This document shows, piece by piece, positions 1 to 40,018 of a DNA stretch of 61,943 bases. Under the pieces are notes generated by a model. It was given only the letters and a program-made list of their open reading frames with translations. It was not told the origin of the DNA and made no database searches. The stretch's first letter is position 1; every line of letters begins with the position of its first letter. Position numbers and translations under genes: made by a program. Source of the stretch: Candidatus Heimdallarchaeota archaeon (lineage in GTDB: Archaea; Asgardarchaeota; Heimdallarchaeia; Heimdallarchaeales; Heimdallarchaeaceae); the NCBI GenBank assembly GCA_019057375.1, contig DXJF01000159.1:1-61943 (forward strand), in the 5' to 3' direction.

Positions 1-904
1 AAAGGTTATTGTTTCACCAAATACTACAAAGCAAATAAAAACTGAATCTGTTAGACATGCACCTGACGAAGATTGTTATTCAACTAAACTCTATTTTGGT
101 CATGTTATGGCTATTAAAGATAAAGTTGATTATCTATTTATTCCAAGATTCGGAAGTAGTCATAAGACAAATGTTAGTTGCCCAAAATTCATCGGCTTAG
201 CAGAAGTTTTACAGTCGATGTTTCCCGATTTACCTCCAATTATAATGCCTTTCTATTCGACTGCAAAAAATGGTCATGGAAAAAGAAGGTTAATTTATCT
301 TATCTTTTCAATTGGATTCAAATTCACAAAGAATCCATTTAGAATCATCAAAGCTGCTAGAAGAGCATTTAAAGAACAAAAGGTTCACTATGAAAATTTG
401 ATTCTCGACGAAAAAACATTACACAAATGGGAGCAGACAGAATATCTACTAAATAATTTCCTAAGTCCAAAAGAGAGTGAAAGACCAATTAAAATTGCAC
501 TTGTTGGTCACTCATATGTTTTAAATGATGATTTTGCTTCGTTAAATATTCAACAGATTCTAAAGGAACATGGTGTAGACTATATAACTTCAGAGCAGCT
601 TCCCAGAACACTAGTTGAAAAACAAATGGATAAACTTGATTATAATCTTTATTTTGATTATGAGAGAGAAATACTAGGAACAATTATGCACTTCATCGAA
701 TGCAAATCTATCGATGGGATTATTCATCTTATAATTTTTAGCTGTGGTCCAGACTCTATCACAGGAGAAATGGCGGCTAGATACGCACAAAGAGATCCTT
801 CAGTTCCACTATTGCAATTAACATTCGACGAACTTACTTCAGAAACAGGTCTAGAGACTAGAATTGAAGCGTTTCTTGATTTATCAAGAAGGAGACAAAA
901 ATAA
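1..904 (+). CDS. Acyl-CoA dehydratase activase-related protein (DUF2229/COG3580-like), 5'-truncated by window edge
   Basis: Frame is open from base 2 (KVIVSPNTT...EDCYSTKLYFGHVMAIKDKVDYLFIPR), so the ORF-track start at 107 is internal; motifs CPKFIGL, GHSYVLND, FSCGPDS, DELTSETGLETRIEAFLD. Confidence 0.75.
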   Translation, partial: KVIVSPNTTKQIKTESVRHAPDEDCYSTKLYFGHVMAIKDKVDYLFIPRFGSSHKTNVSCPKFIGLAEVLQSMFPDLPPIIMPFYSTAKNGHGKRRLIYLIFSIGFKFTKNPFRIIKAARRAFKEQKVHYENLILDEKTLHKWEQTEYLLNNFLSPKESERPIKIALVGHSYVLNDDFASLNIQQILKEHGVDYITSEQLPRTLVEKQMDKLDYNLYFDYEREILGTIMHFIECKSIDGIIHLIIFSCGPDSITGEMAARYAQRDPSVPLLQLTFDELTSETGLETRIEAFLDLSRRRQK

Positions 905-29543: not shown

Positions 29544-30470
29544 TTACTTTTTAGCTTTCTTTTCCCAAATTCCATTAATTTGCTTATGTTGAAAACCTAT
29601 TGAGATATAGAACTGTTGACCATCTCCAACATAGACTTTCTTTGCACCCTCCCTTTTAACTCGGTTGATTGCTTCATAAATGGTTACTTTAGCTAATCCT
29701 TTTCGTCTATGATCAGGAACTGTTCCTACAGGTTCTAGAATTCCAATTTTATTTTTCTCATCGTACCAAATCAAACAAAAAGAAACAATCTCTCCATCTG
29801 GAGCTTCAACATAAACATCTAAATCCTTTCGATAGTCTGGAGCTTTCTGAAGGGCTAGATAAGAGGAAGATTGAACCTCATCTTCTGTTCCCCAATTTCC
29901 AAATGCTCTAGCAAATGCTTCAGTCCTTTTTACAACTTGATTTTCATCGGCCATACTCTTTATCACATAACCTTTTGGAAGATCAGGATAGGAAAAATCT
30001 CTATCAAGGGTAATCAAAGAGGTTGTCTCTTTAGCATCTTCTCTTTTGACATATCCTCTGCCTTTAGCAATTTTTTCTAGTTGACTATCACCAATCCTGA
30101 TTCTAGGTCTTAAAATCATATATCCCTCTTGTTCAAATTGAAGATTTTTTTCAGCAAACTCAAACATCTCCTCAAATGGGATAGAATCTTTATAAGTAGG
30201 ATTAATCTGGAAGAACGTCTCTCCTCTTCCTACTGCTTCATTGAGAACTAAACTCACTATCTCTCCTTCTTCATTCTCCCATATCCCTATTGTTTCACTC
30301 CATTGTTCTATAGTAAATTCAAACATATCTCTGATAAAGAATGCAGCATAATTCCATCTCTCTAAAGTCCAGTTTATTAAATCACCATCATCAACATATG
30401 TTTGTTGAAGAAAATCTTTAATTCTAGAAAAATCCTTATCATGATTATATGATTTGAGATCTATCTTCAT
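29544..30470 (-). CDS. GNAT family N-acetyltransferase (two-domain)
   Basis: LEPVGTVPDHRRKGLA; ATG at 30470 preferred. Confidence 0.85.
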   Translation of the reverse strand: MKIDLKSYNHDKDFSRIKDFLQQTYVDDGDLINWTLERWNYAAFFIRDMFEFTIEQWSETIGIWENEEGEIVSLVLNEAVGRGETFFQINPTYKDSIPFEEMFEFAEKNLQFEQEGYMILRPRIRIGDSQLEKIAKGRGYVKREDAKETTSLITLDRDFSYPDLPKGYVIKSMADENQVVKRTEAFARAFGNWGTEDEVQSSSYLALQKAPDYRKDLDVYVEAPDGEIVSFCLIWYDEKNKIGILEPVGTVPDHRRKGLAKVTIYEAINRVKREGAKKVYVGDGQQFYISIGFQHKQINGIWEKKAKK

Positions 30471-30534
30471 GGAGTGAAACCGAATTTTTGTAATTATAAA
30501 ATTTCTGTTAACAGTAAAATAGGAAAATTCTTTC

Positions 30535-31134
30535 TTATTTCTTCTTTGCATAAACCCAATATTGCAACTCATCCCCTCTATCTAGAATTTCATCAAAAAG
30601 AATCTCAAATTCTGCTTCTTTAACTAAAGAAAGTGTCTTTTCAGGAGGATAATTACTCCAGAACATTTCTTCTCCCAAGAATTCATTAGTATCATCTCCC
30701 CCTAAGTGTCCGACACAGAAGAAAAGAATACCATTTTGTTTAAGCATTCGATGAAAGTTCTTCAGAATAGAGAAATGTTTCTCTTTTGGAACATGAAAGA
30801 GTGAATAAACAGCTGTTATGCAATGAAAAGCATTATCAGGAAAAGCCAAATCATTCATATCATATTGAAAAAATTCAGCTTTAGGAACATTTTGTTTTGC
30901 TAATCCCACCATTTTTTCTGAGATATCAATTCCAGTTACTGAAAAATCATGATCAACAAAAAATCTTGCTACAGGAATTCCTACTCCACAACCAACATCA
31001 AGGATTTTAGCATTTCTAGGAAGAAGTGTTATAAGATACTCTAACTCTTGAAGATTATCAAAAATACTTCTGAATCCTTTGAACTTGGGAGCAATCTCAT
31101 TGTACCCATTTCTTACCATTTCTTCTTTTTTCAT
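30535..31134 (-). CDS. Class I SAM-dependent methyltransferase
   Basis: ILDVGCGVG, GIDISEKM, YSLFH. Confidence 0.9.
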   Translation of the reverse strand: MKKEEMVRNGYNEIAPKFKGFRSIFDNLQELEYLITLLPRNAKILDVGCGVGIPVARFFVDHDFSVTGIDISEKMVGLAKQNVPKAEFFQYDMNDLAFPDNAFHCITAVYSLFHVPKEKHFSILKNFHRMLKQNGILFFCVGHLGGDDTNEFLGEEMFWSNYPPEKTLSLVKEAEFEILFDEILDRGDELQYWVYAKKK

Positions 31135-33317: not shown

Positions 33318-34412
33318 TTGAAAAACACAGATCATGAAGAATACGTAATTGAACAATTCATAATTGAGAGAGAGAAATTTGATGAGTTATCTAAGCTAAT
33401 CACTCAAGCTTTCCTAAGTGATGAAACTGCATTAACAGAAGGGGCAACTGTTGCATTTTCAGAAGAAACGTTTAACATAATGTATGGAGCTCCTTCTATT
33501 GATAAGGACCTTTTCATCAGAGCTATCCACAAACAAACAGGAGAAATAGTAGGATTCCTAGGTTCAATTCCTAGAAATCTTTCTATTATGGGTGAAGTTT
33601 ACAAATTAGCTGTACCTTCATGGTTATGTGTTCACTCTAAACATCAGAAAAAAGGTTTAGCAAAAGGTATGGGGAAGAAGTTATTTGAAATTGGTCTAGC
33701 CAAAGGTTATGATGGAGGATTTTCTCTTCATGAACCTGAGCAACATGGAATAGATGTTTCTACAGCTGTATCCAGAGAGAAGGATATTCCCTTACAAAGA
33801 GTAGTCACTCTAACTAAATTTGTAATCAAAGCATTTGATGTAGATAAAGTTGCTACTGTGGTTAAACTAAGATGGTATGAAAAGCTAGTATTCAGATTCT
33901 TTGAGAAGATAAAAACTATCAACTCTGACCAAATCAGAAAATGTCAGGATAAAGATATACCAGATATGTTTGAAATCATTCAAGAGCAAGTGAAACGAAA
34001 TCAGCTATCAATAGTTCCAGAGCTGGAGGATTTCAAATGGATGCTCAAGAATCCAAATGTTAATTGTGTTATTCATGAAGATAGCAAAGGTAAAATCAAA
34101 GGATTTATGCTAGCCTGGGAATTTTATCTTGCGGGTTTCGGAAACAAAATTCCTTTTGGATGGTTAGATATGATTCATATACATAGGTTGAACACGAAGG
34201 AAGCTAGTAATTTAGCAAATTATCTGAGTCAAACATCCAAAGAACATGGATGGATAGGACTACAAACTCCATATATTCCTTATTTTGATATGAAACCTTT
34301 GAAAAAAGCAAAATTCTTCTTCTTTGGTAAAAAAATCAACTTAGACCTCTTCAATATGAATAATATATCAATTCCTGAAAAAGTTGAATCTTTTTATTTT
34401 GATTGGAGATAA
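33318..34412 (+). CDS. Tandem-GNAT acyltransferase colinear with eukaryotic N-myristoyltransferase (NMT-like)
   Basis: IVGFLGSIPRNLSI, WLCVHSK, IRKCQDKDIP, KF-x10-LFN, EKV; TTG start with GGAG upstream. Confidence 0.7.
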   Translation: MKNTDHEEYVIEQFIIEREKFDELSKLITQAFLSDETALTEGATVAFSEETFNIMYGAPSIDKDLFIRAIHKQTGEIVGFLGSIPRNLSIMGEVYKLAVPSWLCVHSKHQKKGLAKGMGKKLFEIGLAKGYDGGFSLHEPEQHGIDVSTAVSREKDIPLQRVVTLTKFVIKAFDVDKVATVVKLRWYEKLVFRFFEKIKTINSDQIRKCQDKDIPDMFEIIQEQVKRNQLSIVPELEDFKWMLKNPNVNCVIHEDSKGKIKGFMLAWEFYLAGFGNKIPFGWLDMIHIHRLNTKEASNLANYLSQTSKEHGWIGLQTPYIPYFDMKPLKKAKFFFFGKKINLDLFNMNNISIPEKVESFYFDWR

Positions 34413-34414
34413 AA

Positions 34415-34978
34415 ATGAAACAAAAAGAGGCTTTAATACAAGAATTAGAAGTTGTTGACATAAATTTTCTAATGTCACTTAAGAATATAGATGCAAGGAT
34501 TGTTACCAAACAAAAACAAAAGGATGCAAATCATATAGCATGGATTGTAGGACATTGTGTATCACACATGGACTATTATTTATCATATCATACTGGTAAT
34601 AAAATTCTATCATCAGATGAAAGAGAGTACTATGCATATGGAGTTTCAAAAGACCATGTTGTTGAATATCCATTTTCATTTCAAAAATTGATAGATAACT
34701 ACTTAAAAATTTCTTCAGACTATTTTCGAATACTAGAGAAACTTCCAGTTGAAGAGTTTGACAAAATACCACATGAAAATCAAAGTGAGAAATTATCTGA
34801 TCTGGTTCATAGAATTTCCTTACACATAATGGGGCATACAGGTCAAATCGTTCTATTAAGAAGAATGTTTAACAATCCTTTTTGGGATTTTGTGGGAGGA
34901 GTTTCAGAGTCTCAAAGAAATGAATTACGCCAAGGTTGGTTAGATTGGTGGAAAAAAAACAAGAAAGAATATATTTAA
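34415..34978 (+). CDS. DinB/YfiT family metal-binding protein
   Basis: HIAWIVGHC, HIMGHTGQI; starts 2 nt after the NMT-like stop. Confidence 0.8.
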   Translation: MKQKEALIQELEVVDINFLMSLKNIDARIVTKQKQKDANHIAWIVGHCVSHMDYYLSYHTGNKILSSDEREYYAYGVSKDHVVEYPFSFQKLIDNYLKISSDYFRILEKLPVEEFDKIPHENQSEKLSDLVHRISLHIMGHTGQIVLLRRMFNNPFWDFVGGVSESQRNELRQGWLDWWKKNKKEYI

Positions 34979-36564
34979 ACTTCAGGCCATTTAAGTGCTC
35001 TTCTGAGATTAATGAATCTCTTTAAACACTTTGGGTTTACCTCATCTGATGAAGCATAGTTGACATTCATAGAATCTAGAATTTGATTGAATTTTTCTAG
35101 TCTAAAAATAAATGACTTATAGTTTTTATTCTGTTTTAACGACCATGCAGTTTCAGCTACAGCAGCGAGTCTGGGAAAAACTTGCCAGTCTAATCTCGCA
35201 GTATTTGGAACCCATTCGGTCCATATAGGTGCTTCAACACCTTTTATTTGTTCATGATTCTCTTTTTTCAATTTCCGAGGAATTGGTTCAAAATTGTAAG
35301 TTTTCCTAAGGGGTGTTACGAAGTAATTATAATCGAGATAATAACGAAAGAAATTCGAGACAACAATTTCTCCACCTTTTCTTATATGTTTAAGCACTTG
35401 TTTCTTACCTGTTGGAGCCCAGTATTGTCCGATTACATCAACATCTGTTTTTTCATCCAAAATCTCATTCCACCCAATTGTTCTCCTTCCGTTAGATTTT
35501 AGATAATCACTTATTCTTTCTGTAAAATAGGAATGTAGTTCATTGTGCTTTTCTAAACCTTCTTCTTCCATTCTCCCTTTACAATCAGAACAACTTTTCC
35601 AGTTTTTCTTTGGAACCTCATCTCCGCCAATGTGTATAATCTCTGAAGGAAACAGATCTAGTACTTCATCTAAAATATTTATTAAAAACTCAAATGTAAT
35701 CTCTTTTCCTGGACAAAACACATCTGAAAAAATACCAAACTTTATTGGTACTTCGATTTTCTCCTCTTTGCAGCTTACTTCAGGATAGGAAGCAATTGCA
35801 GCTGAAGAATGTCCAGGCATTTCTATTTCTGGAACAATTGTTATGAATCGCTCTTTTGCATATTGAACAATCTCTTTAACTTGTTCTTGCGTATAGAAAC
35901 CTTCATGTGGTTGTCCACGGTATTTTTTACTTGTCCAACCACCAATTTTTGAATCCTTTCTTCTTGAACCTATTTCTGTAAGTTGTGGATATTTCTTGAT
36001 TTCAATTCTCCATCCTTGATCTTCTGTTAGATGCCAATGAAACACATTCATCTTCAATAAGGAAATCAAATCTAAGACACGTTTTATCACGTCTATGCTG
36101 TGAAAATGCCTTCCAACATCAAACATAAATCCTCGCCAAGTAAAGCGCGGAAAATCTTCTATAATTAAACACGGAATTTCCCAAGTAAATTCCCGATTTA
36201 AGACAGATATATCACCATCTCGAGGTAGTAATTGTTTTATTGTTTGAATTCCATAAAAAATACCTGCTTCTCCAGATGAACGAACATCTATGTGTTCATC
36301 TGTTATTATAAGTTCATATCCTTCAGGTCCTAGTTTAGTTAGAGTGTCATCAAGCTTAAAGTTGATTGAATTCTCTATTAAATACTCTTTAGATGATTTT
36401 ATTGTCACTCCAAAATTCTCTGAGAAATATGATATGAAATAGTGTTTTAGATTCGCAACTGATTCAGCTGAGTGAATTTTGGTATTTTTGCTGAGAACAA
36501 ATTTACCATCTTTGAGGTTTAGATTTACAGGTATTGGAATCATTAAATTATCATATTGAATCAT
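34975..36564 (-). CDS. GH20 beta-N-acetylhexosaminidase (no signal peptide)
   Basis: DFPRFTWRG, DVGRHF, HWHLTEDQGWR, PEIEMPGH, HIGGDE, WTEW, FPRL. Confidence 0.95.
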   Translation of the reverse strand: MIQYDNLMIPIPVNLNLKDGKFVLSKNTKIHSAESVANLKHYFISYFSENFGVTIKSSKEYLIENSINFKLDDTLTKLGPEGYELIITDEHIDVRSSGEAGIFYGIQTIKQLLPRDGDISVLNREFTWEIPCLIIEDFPRFTWRGFMFDVGRHFHSIDVIKRVLDLISLLKMNVFHWHLTEDQGWRIEIKKYPQLTEIGSRRKDSKIGGWTSKKYRGQPHEGFYTQEQVKEIVQYAKERFITIVPEIEMPGHSSAAIASYPEVSCKEEKIEVPIKFGIFSDVFCPGKEITFEFLINILDEVLDLFPSEIIHIGGDEVPKKNWKSCSDCKGRMEEEGLEKHNELHSYFTERISDYLKSNGRRTIGWNEILDEKTDVDVIGQYWAPTGKKQVLKHIRKGGEIVVSNFFRYYLDYNYFVTPLRKTYNFEPIPRKLKKENHEQIKGVEAPIWTEWVPNTARLDWQVFPRLAAVAETAWSLKQNKNYKSFIFRLEKFNQILDSMNVNYASSDEVNPKCLKRFINLRRALKWPEV

Positions 36565-36672
36565 TCATAAAAAGTTTTGTTAGTGAATATTATATAAACT
36601 CCCATCTAAATATGATTTTGATTTCCCAGTGTTTTTATATGAGAAATCTCTATTTCTCTTTGTGAGAATACT

Positions 36673-37041
36673 ATGGCTCGAAGAAGAAGACCAATGCGTA
36701 GACCAATGCGTAGACCATTAAAGGATCTAATGAGAGGACCAATCAGACGAGGGATGAATCGACGTCAGAGGAGAATATTTCGACGACAAAGAAGAATGAT
36801 TAGAAGAACAAGAAGGTTCATTTTCGGTTCTGTGATAATTCTCGCTCTTGCAAATAGCAGACATAATTACAAGTTTCATCAAGAGGATGTAGCTCGTATT
36901 GAAAGCTATTATGGAAGACCAGCTGAAGATTTAACTGATGTAGAACTTATTCAAGCAATGAGGAAATTAGGAATTAATCATCTAGACATTAATGACCATG
37001 AGAATGACAAAATTATTGATGATATTGGAGAAGAGTATTAA
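36673..37041 (+). CDS. Hypothetical protein with extremely Arg-rich N-terminus
   Basis: 23 Arg in the first 50 aa, then a hydrophobic stretch and an acidic helical domain. Confidence 0.7.
   Translation: MARRRRPMRRPMRRPLKDLMRGPIRRGMNRRQRRIFRRQRRMIRRTRRFIFGSVIILALANSRHNYKFHQEDVARIESYYGRPAEDLTDVELIQAMRKLGINHLDINDHENDKIIDDIGEEY
36688..36717 (+). repeat. In-frame 12-bp tandem repeat (AGACCAATGCGT x2.5, encoding RPMR)
   Basis: Direct reading of sequence. Confidence 0.9.
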
Positions 37042-37187
37042 TCATTCTTTTAATGAAGATTCACAAAACAAAAATGGAATCTGCTTCTCTTTCTAATTCA
37101 AATTTTAAACTAACATCAATATTCATTGGTGATTTGGATGCTTCTAGGATATCTAGTTAACGAAAAAAAAGGGAAGGAAAAAAGCGA

Positions 37188-39203
37188 TTAGAATGAGATT
37201 CTAATCCAATATGCAGGATGGTCTGATTGCTCTGTTAGGATATATCTTGCATCTAAAACAGTCGTTCCAGAACTAACAAAAATATGGTCAATTCTATCTG
37301 AACTATTGAATGAATTATCATCTAATCCAGAAGGCCATTTAAGATACCAGCTGTCATTGAGTACTGCTGTAGTTAAGCTATATTGTACAGAATCTTTTCT
37401 GAAATTAAAATCACCCATAAAAATAACATTGCTTAATCCATCTACTCTTGTTAGCATCTCTTCTTGTTGAAGAATCATTGTACTTGATGCACCAGAGGGA
37501 TGATTAACAAAAACATTGTAAACGGTTGAATCTAATGTTACTTCTGCTTGAGCTGAACCAATTTGTTCTTCATCACTGAACATAAAGAATGACATTTCAT
37601 TAGATATAGGGAATTTAGAAAGGATTGCGCATCCATACGTGTTAGTAACAGTATTTGGACCATAATATGAATACATATTTAGTTTTTCTGCGAAATATCT
37701 CACAACGTCCAGATTTCCTCCAGATATCCTTGTAGGATCACATTCCTGTAAACCTAGAATGTCGGGGTCAACTTGCCTTATCAGCTCAATTTGGCTATCA
37801 AAATTCCTATCTCCTGTAACATTTCTTCCTTGTTGAATATTGAATGTCATTATAACCAGATCTCCATCTGGTGTATAGTTTGGATAAGGTTTTGTCACAA
37901 GTGTACCTACTAATGTTCCTAGGAAAATTGTACTAAGCAGTACTATTACACTCATATTTCTTCTTTTATTTGTGTATAGTTTACCTAAATCAAACGAGCT
38001 TTTCTTAATCAATAGAATGGATAAAGTCAGTATTAAACCAGGTAAAAAGAAAGCTAACCAATACTTATCTCTAAATCCTGTACTAATCGGTTCAAGGTAA
38101 CCCCAATTATTGGGTAATATTTGAACAAAAATCATTACAATGATATAGAGACTACCAGCTAATGCGAAACTACCACCCATTTTTCTAGTGGAGGGTTTTA
38201 TCTTGATTATTTCTCTAGTTAGAAGCATAAAGTTAACATAGATTATTGGTGATAGAAGAATCATTATAGCTAGCGGTATGTGATAGTACCAAGCAGTTTG
38301 TGGAGCAACTATAGGATATAAAGCAGATTCGTCGGGAAAGCTCAGTTGATGAACAAGAACAGTTAGGAAAAGAGACATAGCAAATACACCATTCCATAAC
38401 CAAAGCATCCATGTTTTCAATTTGCTTAACAAATCTGGTTTAAGCATTTGTCCTATTACAAACAAAGATAAGACTCCAAGTATGCCTAGAGTTATTCCAA
38501 TATAATTTCCTTCTGTCCATCTAGAAATTACCGTAGGACTAGCAAAAGTAAACCAAATAATAATGAAAACGCTTACAAGTCCAGAAGTTAAAGCAAGGAT
38601 TTTACCAAAACCACTTCCTTTTGAAGACTCTTTGATTTCTTCTTGAGTTTCCTTCTGTCCTTCACTTTTGAATTTCATCCCAAATAGCATAATTCCTGCA
38701 ATTATACCGAAAATCCAACCAATCACTTGATACCAACTATACATCGATATGTCAAGAGAGGAATTTAAAGATCTAAGCAAAATGGATAATGCGACAGCAA
38801 TTGCAAGTGATAGTCCAAGAGTTGTACTCGTTTTCTTCTCTTCATTTTTCATCCTTGTTAAATAAATTGGAAAGAAAACTAAGAAACATCCAACTGCTAA
38901 ACCTGAAGTAACCAAAATTCCTTGTCTTTTTAGTAATGGATCTAGTAATCTAGATAAAATTATTAATTCCCCTAGTATAACTAATATCTTATCTGGCAGC
39001 CTTTTACGGAAGAATAAAAGCACAACAGGAGTAATAAGAAATACCAATCCTAAAATGTTCTCATCAGGTTCTAGGTTTAAGAGGGCAAAACCATAAATTG
39101 TTTCAACTAAATCAGAAAGCGCTTGAAAGAAGAATAAGAACAAGATTGCAAACATAATTAACTCGGAATAGAATTTCTTGATATTATCCCTAATACTTGT
39201 CAT
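37188..39203 (-). CDS. Polytopic membrane protein with C-terminal EEP domain, Cwh43/PGAP2IP-like
   Basis: About a dozen or more TM helices; TFNIQQG, GLQECD, GNLDV, LNMYSYYGP, TYGCAILSKFPI, GDFN, RIDHIF, SDH. Confidence 0.8.
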   Translation of the reverse strand: MTSIRDNIKKFYSELIMFAILFLFFFQALSDLVETIYGFALLNLEPDENILGLVFLITPVVLLFFRKRLPDKILVILGELIILSRLLDPLLKRQGILVTSGLAVGCFLVFFPIYLTRMKNEEKKTSTTLGLSLAIAVALSILLRSLNSSLDISMYSWYQVIGWIFGIIAGIMLFGMKFKSEGQKETQEEIKESSKGSGFGKILALTSGLVSVFIIIWFTFASPTVISRWTEGNYIGITLGILGVLSLFVIGQMLKPDLLSKLKTWMLWLWNGVFAMSLFLTVLVHQLSFPDESALYPIVAPQTAWYYHIPLAIMILLSPIIYVNFMLLTREIIKIKPSTRKMGGSFALAGSLYIIVMIFVQILPNNWGYLEPISTGFRDKYWLAFFLPGLILTLSILLIKKSSFDLGKLYTNKRRNMSVIVLLSTIFLGTLVGTLVTKPYPNYTPDGDLVIMTFNIQQGRNVTGDRNFDSQIELIRQVDPDILGLQECDPTRISGGNLDVVRYFAEKLNMYSYYGPNTVTNTYGCAILSKFPISNEMSFFMFSDEEQIGSAQAEVTLDSTVYNVFVNHPSGASSTMILQQEEMLTRVDGLSNVIFMGDFNFRKDSVQYSLTTAVLNDSWYLKWPSGLDDNSFNSSDRIDHIFVSSGTTVLDARYILTEQSDHPAYWIRISF

Positions 39204-39262
39204 AAAGATTTATTTTTTTTAGCTTCTTTAAAAGATTATTCAGTCTTATTAAACCTGTTTAA

Positions 39263-40018
39263 CTAATTTTCTTTTAGTTTTGTTACTACTTTTGATAAAA
39301 TTTCTCCAGCACTAACCTCGAGCTTGATATCAGCTTTTTCATCCAAAGGTGTTGAGTCTATATTAATAATAATTAATTTTACACCATTCTTTTGTGCTTT
39401 TCTAGGCAATCCTGCAGCAGGAAAAACTGATAAACTTGATCCTACAACCAACATTAAATCACACTTCTGAGTGTGTTTCTTCGATATAGCCATTTCTTTC
39501 TCAGGCATAGGGTCATTAAAATTAATAACAGAAGAAATTATTCTACCATTACACTTTGGACATACCGGTTGGTGATCAAGTTGTTCTTCTGTTCTAGAAC
39601 CTCTTCCATGAATTTCTCGATCCCAACCAATCTCTTCCCGCTTATATCGAGTATCACATTCTATACATTTCATAAACATATAGTTCCCATGAAGTTCAGC
39701 TATCAATTCAAGCTTAATACCGGATTTAAGATGAAGATTATCCACATTTTGAGAAATTAAGAATTTAAGTATCCCCATGTCTTGCAAGGCAACTAGAGCA
39801 AGATGGCCAGTATTCGGTTTAACTTCATCAAAATGTTTTCCTCTTTTAGGTGGTAGTCCCTTTTCTTTTCTTGTCCAGATACCGTCTTTACCTCTGAAAT
39901 CAGCTAATCCAGATTCAGTACTTATACCAGCACCTGTAAAAGCTACTACATAGTTAGATTCATTGATCATCCGGACGATGTCATTAACATCTTTTTCCGT
40001 AAATGGGATTTTTTTCAC
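39263..40018 (-). CDS. Sir2 family NAD-dependent deacylase, class IV (SIRT6/7)-like
   Basis: GAGISTESG, FRG..GIWT, SQNVDNLH, ELHGN, CxxC/CxxC, GSSL. Confidence 0.9.
   Translation of the reverse strand: MKKIPFTEKDVNDIVRMINESNYVVAFTGAGISTESGLADFRGKDGIWTRKEKGLPPKRGKHFDEVKPNTGHLALVALQDMGILKFLISQNVDNLHLKSGIKLELIAELHGNYMFMKCIECDTRYKREEIGWDREIHGRGSRTEEQLDHQPVCPKCNGRIISSVINFNDPMPEKEMAISKKHTQKCDLMLVVGSSLSVFPAAGLPRKAQKNGVKLIIINIDSTPLDEKADIKLEVSAGEILSKVVTKLKEN

Follow-up and report, generated by a model that had tools for sequence, protein, structure and literature searches.

Whether an archaeon can encode an enzyme of the N-myristoyltransferase (NMT) type is the question raised by a gene in a 61,943-nucleotide stretch of DNA, hereafter the window, from Candidatus Heimdallarchaeota archaeon (NCBI GenBank assembly GCA_019057375.1, contig DXJF01000159.1, positions 1 to 61,943 of the forward strand). 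An initial annotation described the product as a full-length NMT-like protein, colinear with human NMT1 across two GNAT lobes, and cautioned that its donor or acceptor specificity may differ. In most accounts, to our knowledge, N-myristoylation belongs to eukaryotes alone, and how NMT arose has not been settled. The protein is homologous to NMT, and it is probably a soluble acyl-CoA-dependent N-acyltransferase built like NMT, that is, an NMT-type double GNAT, rather than an NMT ortholog in function.

The gene is complete and occupies 33318..34412 on the plus strand, encoding 364 amino acids (aa) from a TTG start to a stop codon at 34410-34412 in the list of open reading frames (ORFs). The start residue is common to the orthologs, many of which use ATG. 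A homolog search of 5.8 billion proteins returned 108 relatives, nearly all of 360-367 aa, whose source labels name Heimdall-, Loki-, Thor-, Gerd-, and Sigynarchaeota and describe the protein at most as a 'GNAT family N-acetyltransferase'. The window genome carries a single copy, and comparison with six orthologs gives ratios of nonsynonymous to synonymous substitution (dN/dS) of 0.07-0.24; the ORF is real, intact, and under purifying selection. An alignment of 53 family members, to which all statements on conservation within the family refer, has a mean column identity of 53%. That the gene sits in an archaeon, as annotated, is borne out by the gene order and the 84-90% protein identity that the window shares with contigs of Heimdallarchaeota metagenome-assembled genomes (MAGs), and the window genome and Candidatus Harpocratesius belong to the same phylum.

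The likeness to NMT reflects homology and not chance. In Pfam, the N-terminal domain of NMT (PF01233) is recognized at residues 17-117 with 37.4 bits, above the cut-off of 25; the C-terminal domain (NMT_C, PF02799) stays under its cut-off (14.7 bits vs 27.9), with residues 200-264 alone matching, so that of these two checks proposed for the annotation only the first is positive. In HMMER comparisons with solved NMTs, residues 75-117 (..VGFLGSIPRNLSI..WLCVHSKHQKKGLA) pair with human NMT2 107-149, residues 202-265 (IRKCQDKDIPDMFEII..HEDSKGKIKGF) pair with human NMT2 221-286, and a Plasmodium NMT is matched in one unbroken stretch (residues 26-264), which recovers four of the five matched segments that had been claimed. 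Among the 38 matches listed by phmmer against the PDB, 31 are NMTs, including the best 31. A profile made from the 53-member alignment finds NMTs as its best 35 distinct PDB sequences, with E values down to 6.8e-14; each lobe contributes one of two colinear stretches. Matches other than NMT begin at E 0.004, and mycobacterial Eis is at E about 1. Against yeast NMT, the N-lobe aligns with NMT 56-165 and a second stretch, residues 200-270, with NMT 222-300. The hhalign comparison with 22 eukaryotic NMTs gives a probability of 98.2% and an E value of 3e-14 over 233 columns. Sequence identity to NMT is only 14-17%.

The AlphaFold2 model (mean predicted local distance difference test score, pLDDT, 94.4; predicted template-modeling score, pTM, 0.91) shows one GNAT lobe at residues 9-172, another at 206-346, and a tail of 18 residues. 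The N-terminal lobe (33342..33833, +; residues ~9-172, from β1 at 9-14 to β6 at 159-172), which holds the Pfam NMT match at 17-117 and also matches Acetyltransf_9, is predicted to bind acyl-CoA. The C-terminal lobe (33933..34355, +; residues ~206-346), placed by the sub-threshold NMT_C match, the profile, and the model, has no CoA motif, as its residues 288-293 read from the sequence do not form Q/R-x-x-G-x-G/A, and is predicted to bind the acceptor. Foldseek lists nothing but NMTs among its first 50 PDB matches (E about 1e-21, TM-score 0.72-0.78). An exhaustive structural alignment covering 48,161 chains, with the best 50 matches listed, places yeast NMT first (Z 31.4, root-mean-square deviation (rmsd) 2.9, 337 residues, model 3..364 to 73..455); the NMT of C. 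parvum aligns over 327 residues (Z 29.8, model 4..364 to 78..466), and the next tandem GNATs are MAB_4324 (Z 22.6) and Eis (Z 20.3). Among solved structures, the best matches are thus NMTs and not generic bacterial tandem GNATs, and the profile, hhalign, and structural alignments together support the description of a full-length NMT homolog colinear over both lobes. No FemABX-type transferase occurs among the best 50 structural matches listed, where a lower-ranked match is possible, and the canonical CoA loop in the sequence would argue for an acyl-CoA donor rather than an aminoacyl-tRNA of the FemABX type.

In NMT, a catalytic role of the C-terminal carboxylate is documented (PMC7048800), which gives weight to the way in which the chain ends. 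The C-terminal tail, ...SFYFDWR (34356..34409, +; residues 347-364), is delimited by conservation and structural alignment, and the free carboxylate of R364 is its predicted catalytic base. R364, the last residue, is invariant and W363 nearly so. Of 47 family proteins derived from loci, bacterial ones included, 46 end ...[DEY]-W-R directly before the stop, the exception (L057) ending ...DYE. Nearly all full-length database matches end ...WR as well, apart from rare variants (for example, ...ILR) and a few truncated or read-through sequences. Distant relatives (21-25% identity) keep this register, most of them ending in ..[DE]-x-R and some in I, M, L, or K. Eukaryotic NMTs end ..V-M-L and alike. 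A chain end fixed over such divergence fits a functional C-terminal carboxylate. In the structural alignments, model residue 364 is the last aligned residue, facing NMT 455 in yeast and 466 in C. parvum, so the annotated match of the chain end holds to the last residue, and the C-terminal carboxylate is predicted to lie in the active site as in NMT. The fifth claimed segment, KF-x10-L[FY]N together with the chain end, stands in part. In its favor are the MAFFT L-INS-i alignment (78 sequences), the structural alignment to the last residue, and the succession of strands and helices in the model, but it falls outside the local hhalign alignment, which ends at residue 269, and a forced global hhalign alignment pairs the region differently at low confidence. 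The C-terminal pairing given by this global alignment (FYFDWR with YYLYNW) conflicts with both the secondary-structure order and the structural alignment and was set aside as unreliable.

The active site of human NMT1 includes a glycine pocket made of Tyr180, Tyr192, Asn246, Thr282, Leu495, and the Gln496 carboxylate, an oxyanion hole formed by the backbone of Phe247 and Leu248, and Glu244 as a back-up base (PMC7048800, Dian et al.). The counterpart of the Ab-loop (AFLSDE...EGATVAF; 33408..33458, +), placed by the hhalign columns, has F32 at the position of Tyr180 and F47 at that of Tyr192; both are nearly invariant in the family, and G42 is invariant. Strand β4 with its bulge, V99-P100-S101-W102-L103-C104-V105-H106 (33612..33635, +), pairs with NMT E-I-N-F-L-C-V-H in HMMER and hhalign. 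W102 and L103 occupy the oxyanion-hole positions, V99, P100, and S101 take the places of Glu244, Ile245, and Asn246, and P100 and V105 are invariant. At the β4-α3 junction lies the acyl-CoA pyrophosphate motif Q/R-x-x-G-x-A (defined in PMC12219266), here H109-Q-K-K-G113-L-A115 (33642..33662, +), which pairs with NMT L-R-x-K-R-L-A and in which H109 is invariant and A115 nearly so. After β5, a family-specific block, GYDGGF..HEPEQHGID (33705..33755, +), stands in place of NMT ..YTAG.., the Thr282 platform, and is unalignable to it: hhalign leaves a gap of ~16 residues on the NMT side, and MAFFT pairs the block differently. In the model, β5 spans residues 133-138 and α4 residues 144-154; E139 is nearly invariant and G144 invariant in the family. 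The general base of GNATs is commonly an acidic residue directly after β5, and E139 is a candidate for an extra general base.

The glycine pocket is accordingly not conserved: Tyr180, Tyr192, and Asn246 are F32, F47, and S101, and neither hhalign nor MAFFT gives a reliable counterpart of Thr282. Also absent are the N-terminal FWxTQPV motif and the basic leader of NMT, since only 8 residues precede β1 and the alignments begin at about residue 52-76 of a 421-aa NMT, beyond FWxTQPV. The catalytic frame of CoA loop, bulge, and chain end is kept, and the glycine-recognition platform is not. The two differences singled out at the outset, the replacement of EIN by V99-P100-S101 and the missing GDG turn (KFFFFGKK here), are correct, and the caution about specificity was well placed given the exchanged pocket residues.

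A mechanism can be proposed from these features. The N-lobe would bind acyl-CoA via its Q-x-x-G-x-A loop, the β4 bulge (W102/L103) would polarize the thioester, and the degenerate C-lobe would form the acceptor site. The protein's own C-terminus (W-R-COO-) would fold back, bringing its terminal carboxylate into the active site to take a proton from the acceptor amine, as NMT does, and E139 may assist or stand in for the carboxylate. Because the glycine-holding residues and the N-terminal motif are absent, the acceptor is presumably not the eukaryotic Gly-peptide consensus.

For its distribution, 301 evenly sampled genomes from the phylum of the window were scanned, with E 1e-10 as the limit for calling the gene present. 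It occurs in 43 of these Asgard genomes and in four families only: the window's own (f1, 23/28), f6 (11/11), f27 with Candidatus Harpocratesius (7/7), and f11 (1/76). It was not found in the remaining families of this sample, for example f14 (0/68). In the window's family, the gene has been inactivated twice independently, both times in closed genomes. In G026 (L072, C1:1010600-1013700), the segment for residues 77-143 is inverted and the gene broken, and in G074 (L073, C1:1137300-1142300), an IS insertion of 1.8 kb, with a gene for a TnpB/Cas12f1-like protein of 500 aa (PF07282), splits the ORF. A scan of species genomes gave 60 loci, among them 13 full-length copies in bacterial MAGs, several of which lie on long contigs assigned to Smithella (160 kb), a 'delta proteobacterium' (5.7 Mb), Leptospirales (187 and 331 kb), and Fusibacter (1.25 Mb), and on a 2.3-Mb chromosome. 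The bacterial copies, at 35-50% identity, have the same ...WR end; their loci have a host-like G+C content of 34-68%, or 44-68% on contigs of 0.16-5.7 Mb, and the Asgard loci one of 32%. Given the long contigs and host-like G+C, these copies are truly bacterial and not binning errors, which runs counter to the implied view of an Asgard speciality pointing to archaeal N-myristoylation. The bacterial neighbors are mutually unrelated (2-oxoacid dehydrogenase-like, OTCase, MFS, xylose isomerase-like), and among the loci compared no neighbor gene is conserved beyond one archaeal family. Thus, the gene is accessory, patchy, and horizontally exchanged, not part of a core set.

Some loci stand apart. 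Three sequences with non-Asgard labels, L030 ('Bathyarchaeia') and P0063 and P0106 ('Zixibacteria', 'Aminicenantes'), are family members at 53-58% identity, and L030 has ~32% G+C and Heimdall-like neighbors; unlike those of the high-G+C bacterial loci, these labels may be binning or naming errors. One Leptospirales contig (L052:8001-10414) carries two tandem copies of 365 and 383 aa.

The exchange between Asgard archaea and bacterial phyla with motifs near-unchanged and without a conserved partner suggests an acceptor shared by both domains, most likely a common small amine or one universally conserved protein. Several points weigh against this and against an NMT-type N-acyltransferase as a whole. 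The argument from a shared acceptor is indirect, and the proximity of Sir2 genes in one Heimdall family and in one deltaproteobacterial locus (L048) would be more in keeping with protein lysines as acceptors. Where the C-terminus lies is read from the alignment ranges of a predicted model whose last four residues have a mean pLDDT of 79. Finally, hhalign and MAFFT reliably align neither the Thr282 platform of NMT nor the part that shapes its acyl pocket, so the donor and the chemistry could differ more than assumed.

Beyond the ...WR family, an exhaustive phmmer search of 1.8 billion representatives recovers further proteins of ~330-410 aa at 21-25% identity, several of which pass Pfam NMT, as well as genuine NMTs (E 4e-4 to 7e-7). 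A profile of 24 of the distant relatives reaches PDB NMTs at E 4e-25 over both lobes and is stronger in this than the profile of the window's family. In the ESM Atlas, clusters close in features and shape have TM-scores of 0.81-0.87 over the whole model, and eukaryotic NMT clusters ~0.80. The labels of the close clusters, which serve as leads only, are mostly bacterial (Aminicenantota, Acidobacteriota, Pseudomonadota, Myxococcota) and hint at a wide bacterial occurrence of NMT-like proteins of ~350 aa. In a tree of 59 rows and 361 columns (IQ-TREE, LG+C20+F+G4 with posterior mean site frequencies, PMSF), eukaryotic NMTs and one short, possibly viral form make up a clade (100/100) on a stem of 2.65 changes per site, and the ...WR family is a clade that excludes eukaryotic NMTs (100/100). 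The backbone is unresolved, and within the ...WR family, bacterial and Asgard sequences are interleaved, with a Heimdall and Loki subclade nested inside. Eukaryotic NMTs therefore do not branch from within Asgard sequences, and the tree lends no support to an origin of NMT among the Asgard genes, with the long stem and the missing root as caveats. A metagenomic protein of 364 aa at the base of the eukaryotic NMT clade, P0162, has both NMT Pfam domains in strong form (145 and 104 bits) and may be a giant-virus NMT; similar ESM Atlas clusters are labelled Nucleocytoviricota.

The trees also bear on the idea that the family is a prokaryotic protein fatty-acyltransferase, with which Asgard archaea and some anaerobic bacteria lipidate N-termini or lysines, and that eukaryotic NMT arose from this stock as a sister to the ...WR family. 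An approximately unbiased (AU) test does not reject this sister position (p 0.77); in that run, the constrained tree beat the quick free-search tree, and the careful IQ-TREE tree was used in its place. If the idea is true, NMT is not a eukaryotic invention. We consider it unlikely.

A related proposal is that the protein is a true archaeal NMT, which moves myristate or a different long acyl chain onto the N-terminal glycines of numerous proteins after methionine removal and is the Asgard forerunner of the eukaryotic enzyme. Its closest known relative by sequence and structure is indeed NMT, with a matching chain end. Genes for acyl-CoA synthetase-like proteins and acyl-CoA dehydrogenases are present in the genome, and the AU result is compatible with a sister position. 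Nevertheless, the pocket residues strictly conserved in NMT are changed (F32, F47, S101, V99) and Thr282 cannot be aligned, the NMT_C score is only about half of its cut-off, and the FWxTQPV region has no counterpart. Moreover, eukaryotic NMTs fall outside a family in which Asgard sequences are nested among bacterial ones, the gene is found in a minority of Asgard genomes and broken in two closed ones, and according to two papers, the Arf GTPases of Asgard archaea carry no myristoylation signal. A true NMT is thus quite unlikely, and the data place neither the Asgard genes as the ancestor of NMT nor the protein as a myristoyltransferase.

The gene neighborhood has suggested a wider role, in which the NMT-like protein writes a reversible lysine acylation that a Sir2 protein erases (33318-40018). 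In the window, the NMT-like gene is preceded by an M28 peptidase gene and followed by genes for a DinB-like protein, a GH20 hexosaminidase, a 122-aa protein, a PGAP2IP/Cwh43-like membrane protein with an endonuclease/exonuclease/phosphatase (EEP) domain, Sir2, dodecin, a DNA methylase, and a CN-hydrolase; the block from M28 to CN-hydrolase recurs, rearranged, solely in Heimdall-labelled loci. The Sir2-family gene (PF02146; 39263-40018, -; 250 aa) lies 4.9 kb downstream of the NMT-like gene. Sir2 is found within ~10 kb in 11 Heimdall loci including the window, spread over three NMT-like subclades, and in some of them (for example, L041 and L032) the two genes abut and converge; in L048, a Sir2 gene abuts convergently as well, although its product is unrelated-looking (27% identity). 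NMTs themselves can acylate lysines (PMC7044312, PMC7048800). The linkage is nevertheless limited to archaeal family f1 and absent in f6, f27, the Loki loci, and 12/13 bacterial loci, the intervening genes are mixed (GH20, TPR, DinB, EEP membrane protein), and convergent genes are not co-transcribed. A phyletic coupling of the two genes was rejected, as Sir2 orthologs (~50% identity or more) are present in most Asgard genomes without the NMT-like gene, for instance in 67/68 genomes of f14. The pairing of writer and eraser is not supported, and we hold it to be quite improbable.

On the same strand, the DinB-superfamily gene (34403-34978, +) shares 10 nt with the end of the NMT-like gene, stop codon included. 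The pair is kept in nine loci (the window and eight labelled Heimdall or uncultured archaeon), which makes co-transcription possible. The EEP protein (37188-39203, -; 671 aa), whose C-terminal domain fits the PGAP2IP/Cwh43 model PF23226 with 68 bits, is conserved in four further Heimdall loci, where its gene adjoins the NMT-like gene or lies close by. The 122-aa ORF (36673-37041, +), with a strongly arginine-rich N-terminus and no Pfam match, has the same place in L010 and L014. A second GNAT protein of 342 aa (29544-30572, -), 2.7 kb upstream, has its acetyltransferase domain in the C-terminal third and is kept in three related loci. An acyl-CoA-binding protein (ACBP, PF00887) was not found in the window genome, which says little at 89% completeness.

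It may also be asked whether the likeness to NMT comes from the shared double-GNAT fold alone, the protein being an ordinary acetyltransferase among tandem GNATs such as Eis, MshD, or MAB_4324. Acetyltransf_9 (Eis-type GNAT, PF13527) scores as high on its N-lobe as the Pfam NMT model does (37.3 bits), such proteins reach Z 18-23, and Eis also uses its C-terminal carboxylate. Yet the family profile separates NMT (E 7e-14) from Eis by many orders of magnitude, NMT stands ~9 Z units above the best other match with a lower rmsd and more aligned residues, and a third, SCP2-like domain is missing. The profile of distant relatives, in which MAB_4324 is unlisted, matches NMT over both lobes. The present data favor a grouping with NMT over one with Eis or MAB_4324, making an ordinary acetyltransferase of this kind very unlikely. 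A catalytically dead binding or scaffold protein with an NMT fold, to which the replacement of several NMT catalytic-platform residues might point, is hardly credible: the CoA loop, bulge, and chain end show little or no variation in archaea and bacteria alike, and purifying selection is strong.

An NMT-type N-acyltransferase remains the preferred reading, and its interest lies in the fact that the closest characterized relative of a well-conserved prokaryotic family is NMT. The family offers an outgroup and tractable proteins, including bacterial ones (Smithella, Fusibacter), and through them the question of whether catalysis by a C-terminal carboxylate is older than eukaryotes can be tested concretely. 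This significance is tempered by the lack of a conserved glycine pocket and by the fact that prokaryotic NMT-type proteins have been in print since 2025. NMT-type double-GNAT structures in archaea and bacteria were reported from a search of the PDB and AlphaFold DB (PMC12219266, Nat Commun 2025), with one Thorarchaeota and one Euryarchaeota protein, uncharacterized there, on the list. Save for the relevant statement in that paper, no description of an Asgard or bacterial NMT family was found in the literature.

Among known systems, human histidine acetyltransferase HisAT/NAT16 (9emd) is likewise a double GNAT with an active N-lobe and acts on a small amine, but it belongs to another structural subtype, the β-hairpin type (Z 14.7). 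Mycobacterial Eis (PF13527 and an SCP2-like domain; 3sxn) is also a tandem GNAT with an active N-lobe, which scores on the same Pfam model; it differs in its third domain, absent from the 364-aa, two-lobe protein, and aligns with an rmsd of 6.0. MAB_4324 of Mycobacterium abscessus (7q3a), a two-lobe bacterial GNAT of ~340 aa, is the best non-NMT structural match, but its alignment ends at model residue 347, leaving the C-terminal tail unmatched, and it is absent from the sequence-profile search lists. The class described in PMC12219266, which is likewise prokaryotic and uncharacterized, comes with no named family, motif, distribution, or function; as modeled, the NMT-like protein fits its definition, a double GNAT with a C-terminus that ends at the active site as in NMT1. 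The eukaryotic and giant-virus NMTs (EC 2.3.1.97; PF01233 and PF02799; yeast Nmt1p 2p6e, human NMT1 5mu6) differ in the pocket, with Tyr180, Tyr192, Asn246, and Glu244 in place of Phe, Phe, Ser, and Val, and with the Thr282 strand in place of the longer HEPEQHG-bearing block. They also possess the FWxTQPV region and a Lys-rich leader, and they end in a hydrophobic residue plus Leu or Gln instead of W-R. Like the NMT-like protein, however, they carry two GNAT lobes on one chain, a CoA loop confined to the N-lobe, and a β4 bulge at aligned positions (F-L in NMT, W-L here), and in the model the C-terminus of the NMT-like protein superposes on the catalytic C-terminus of NMT.

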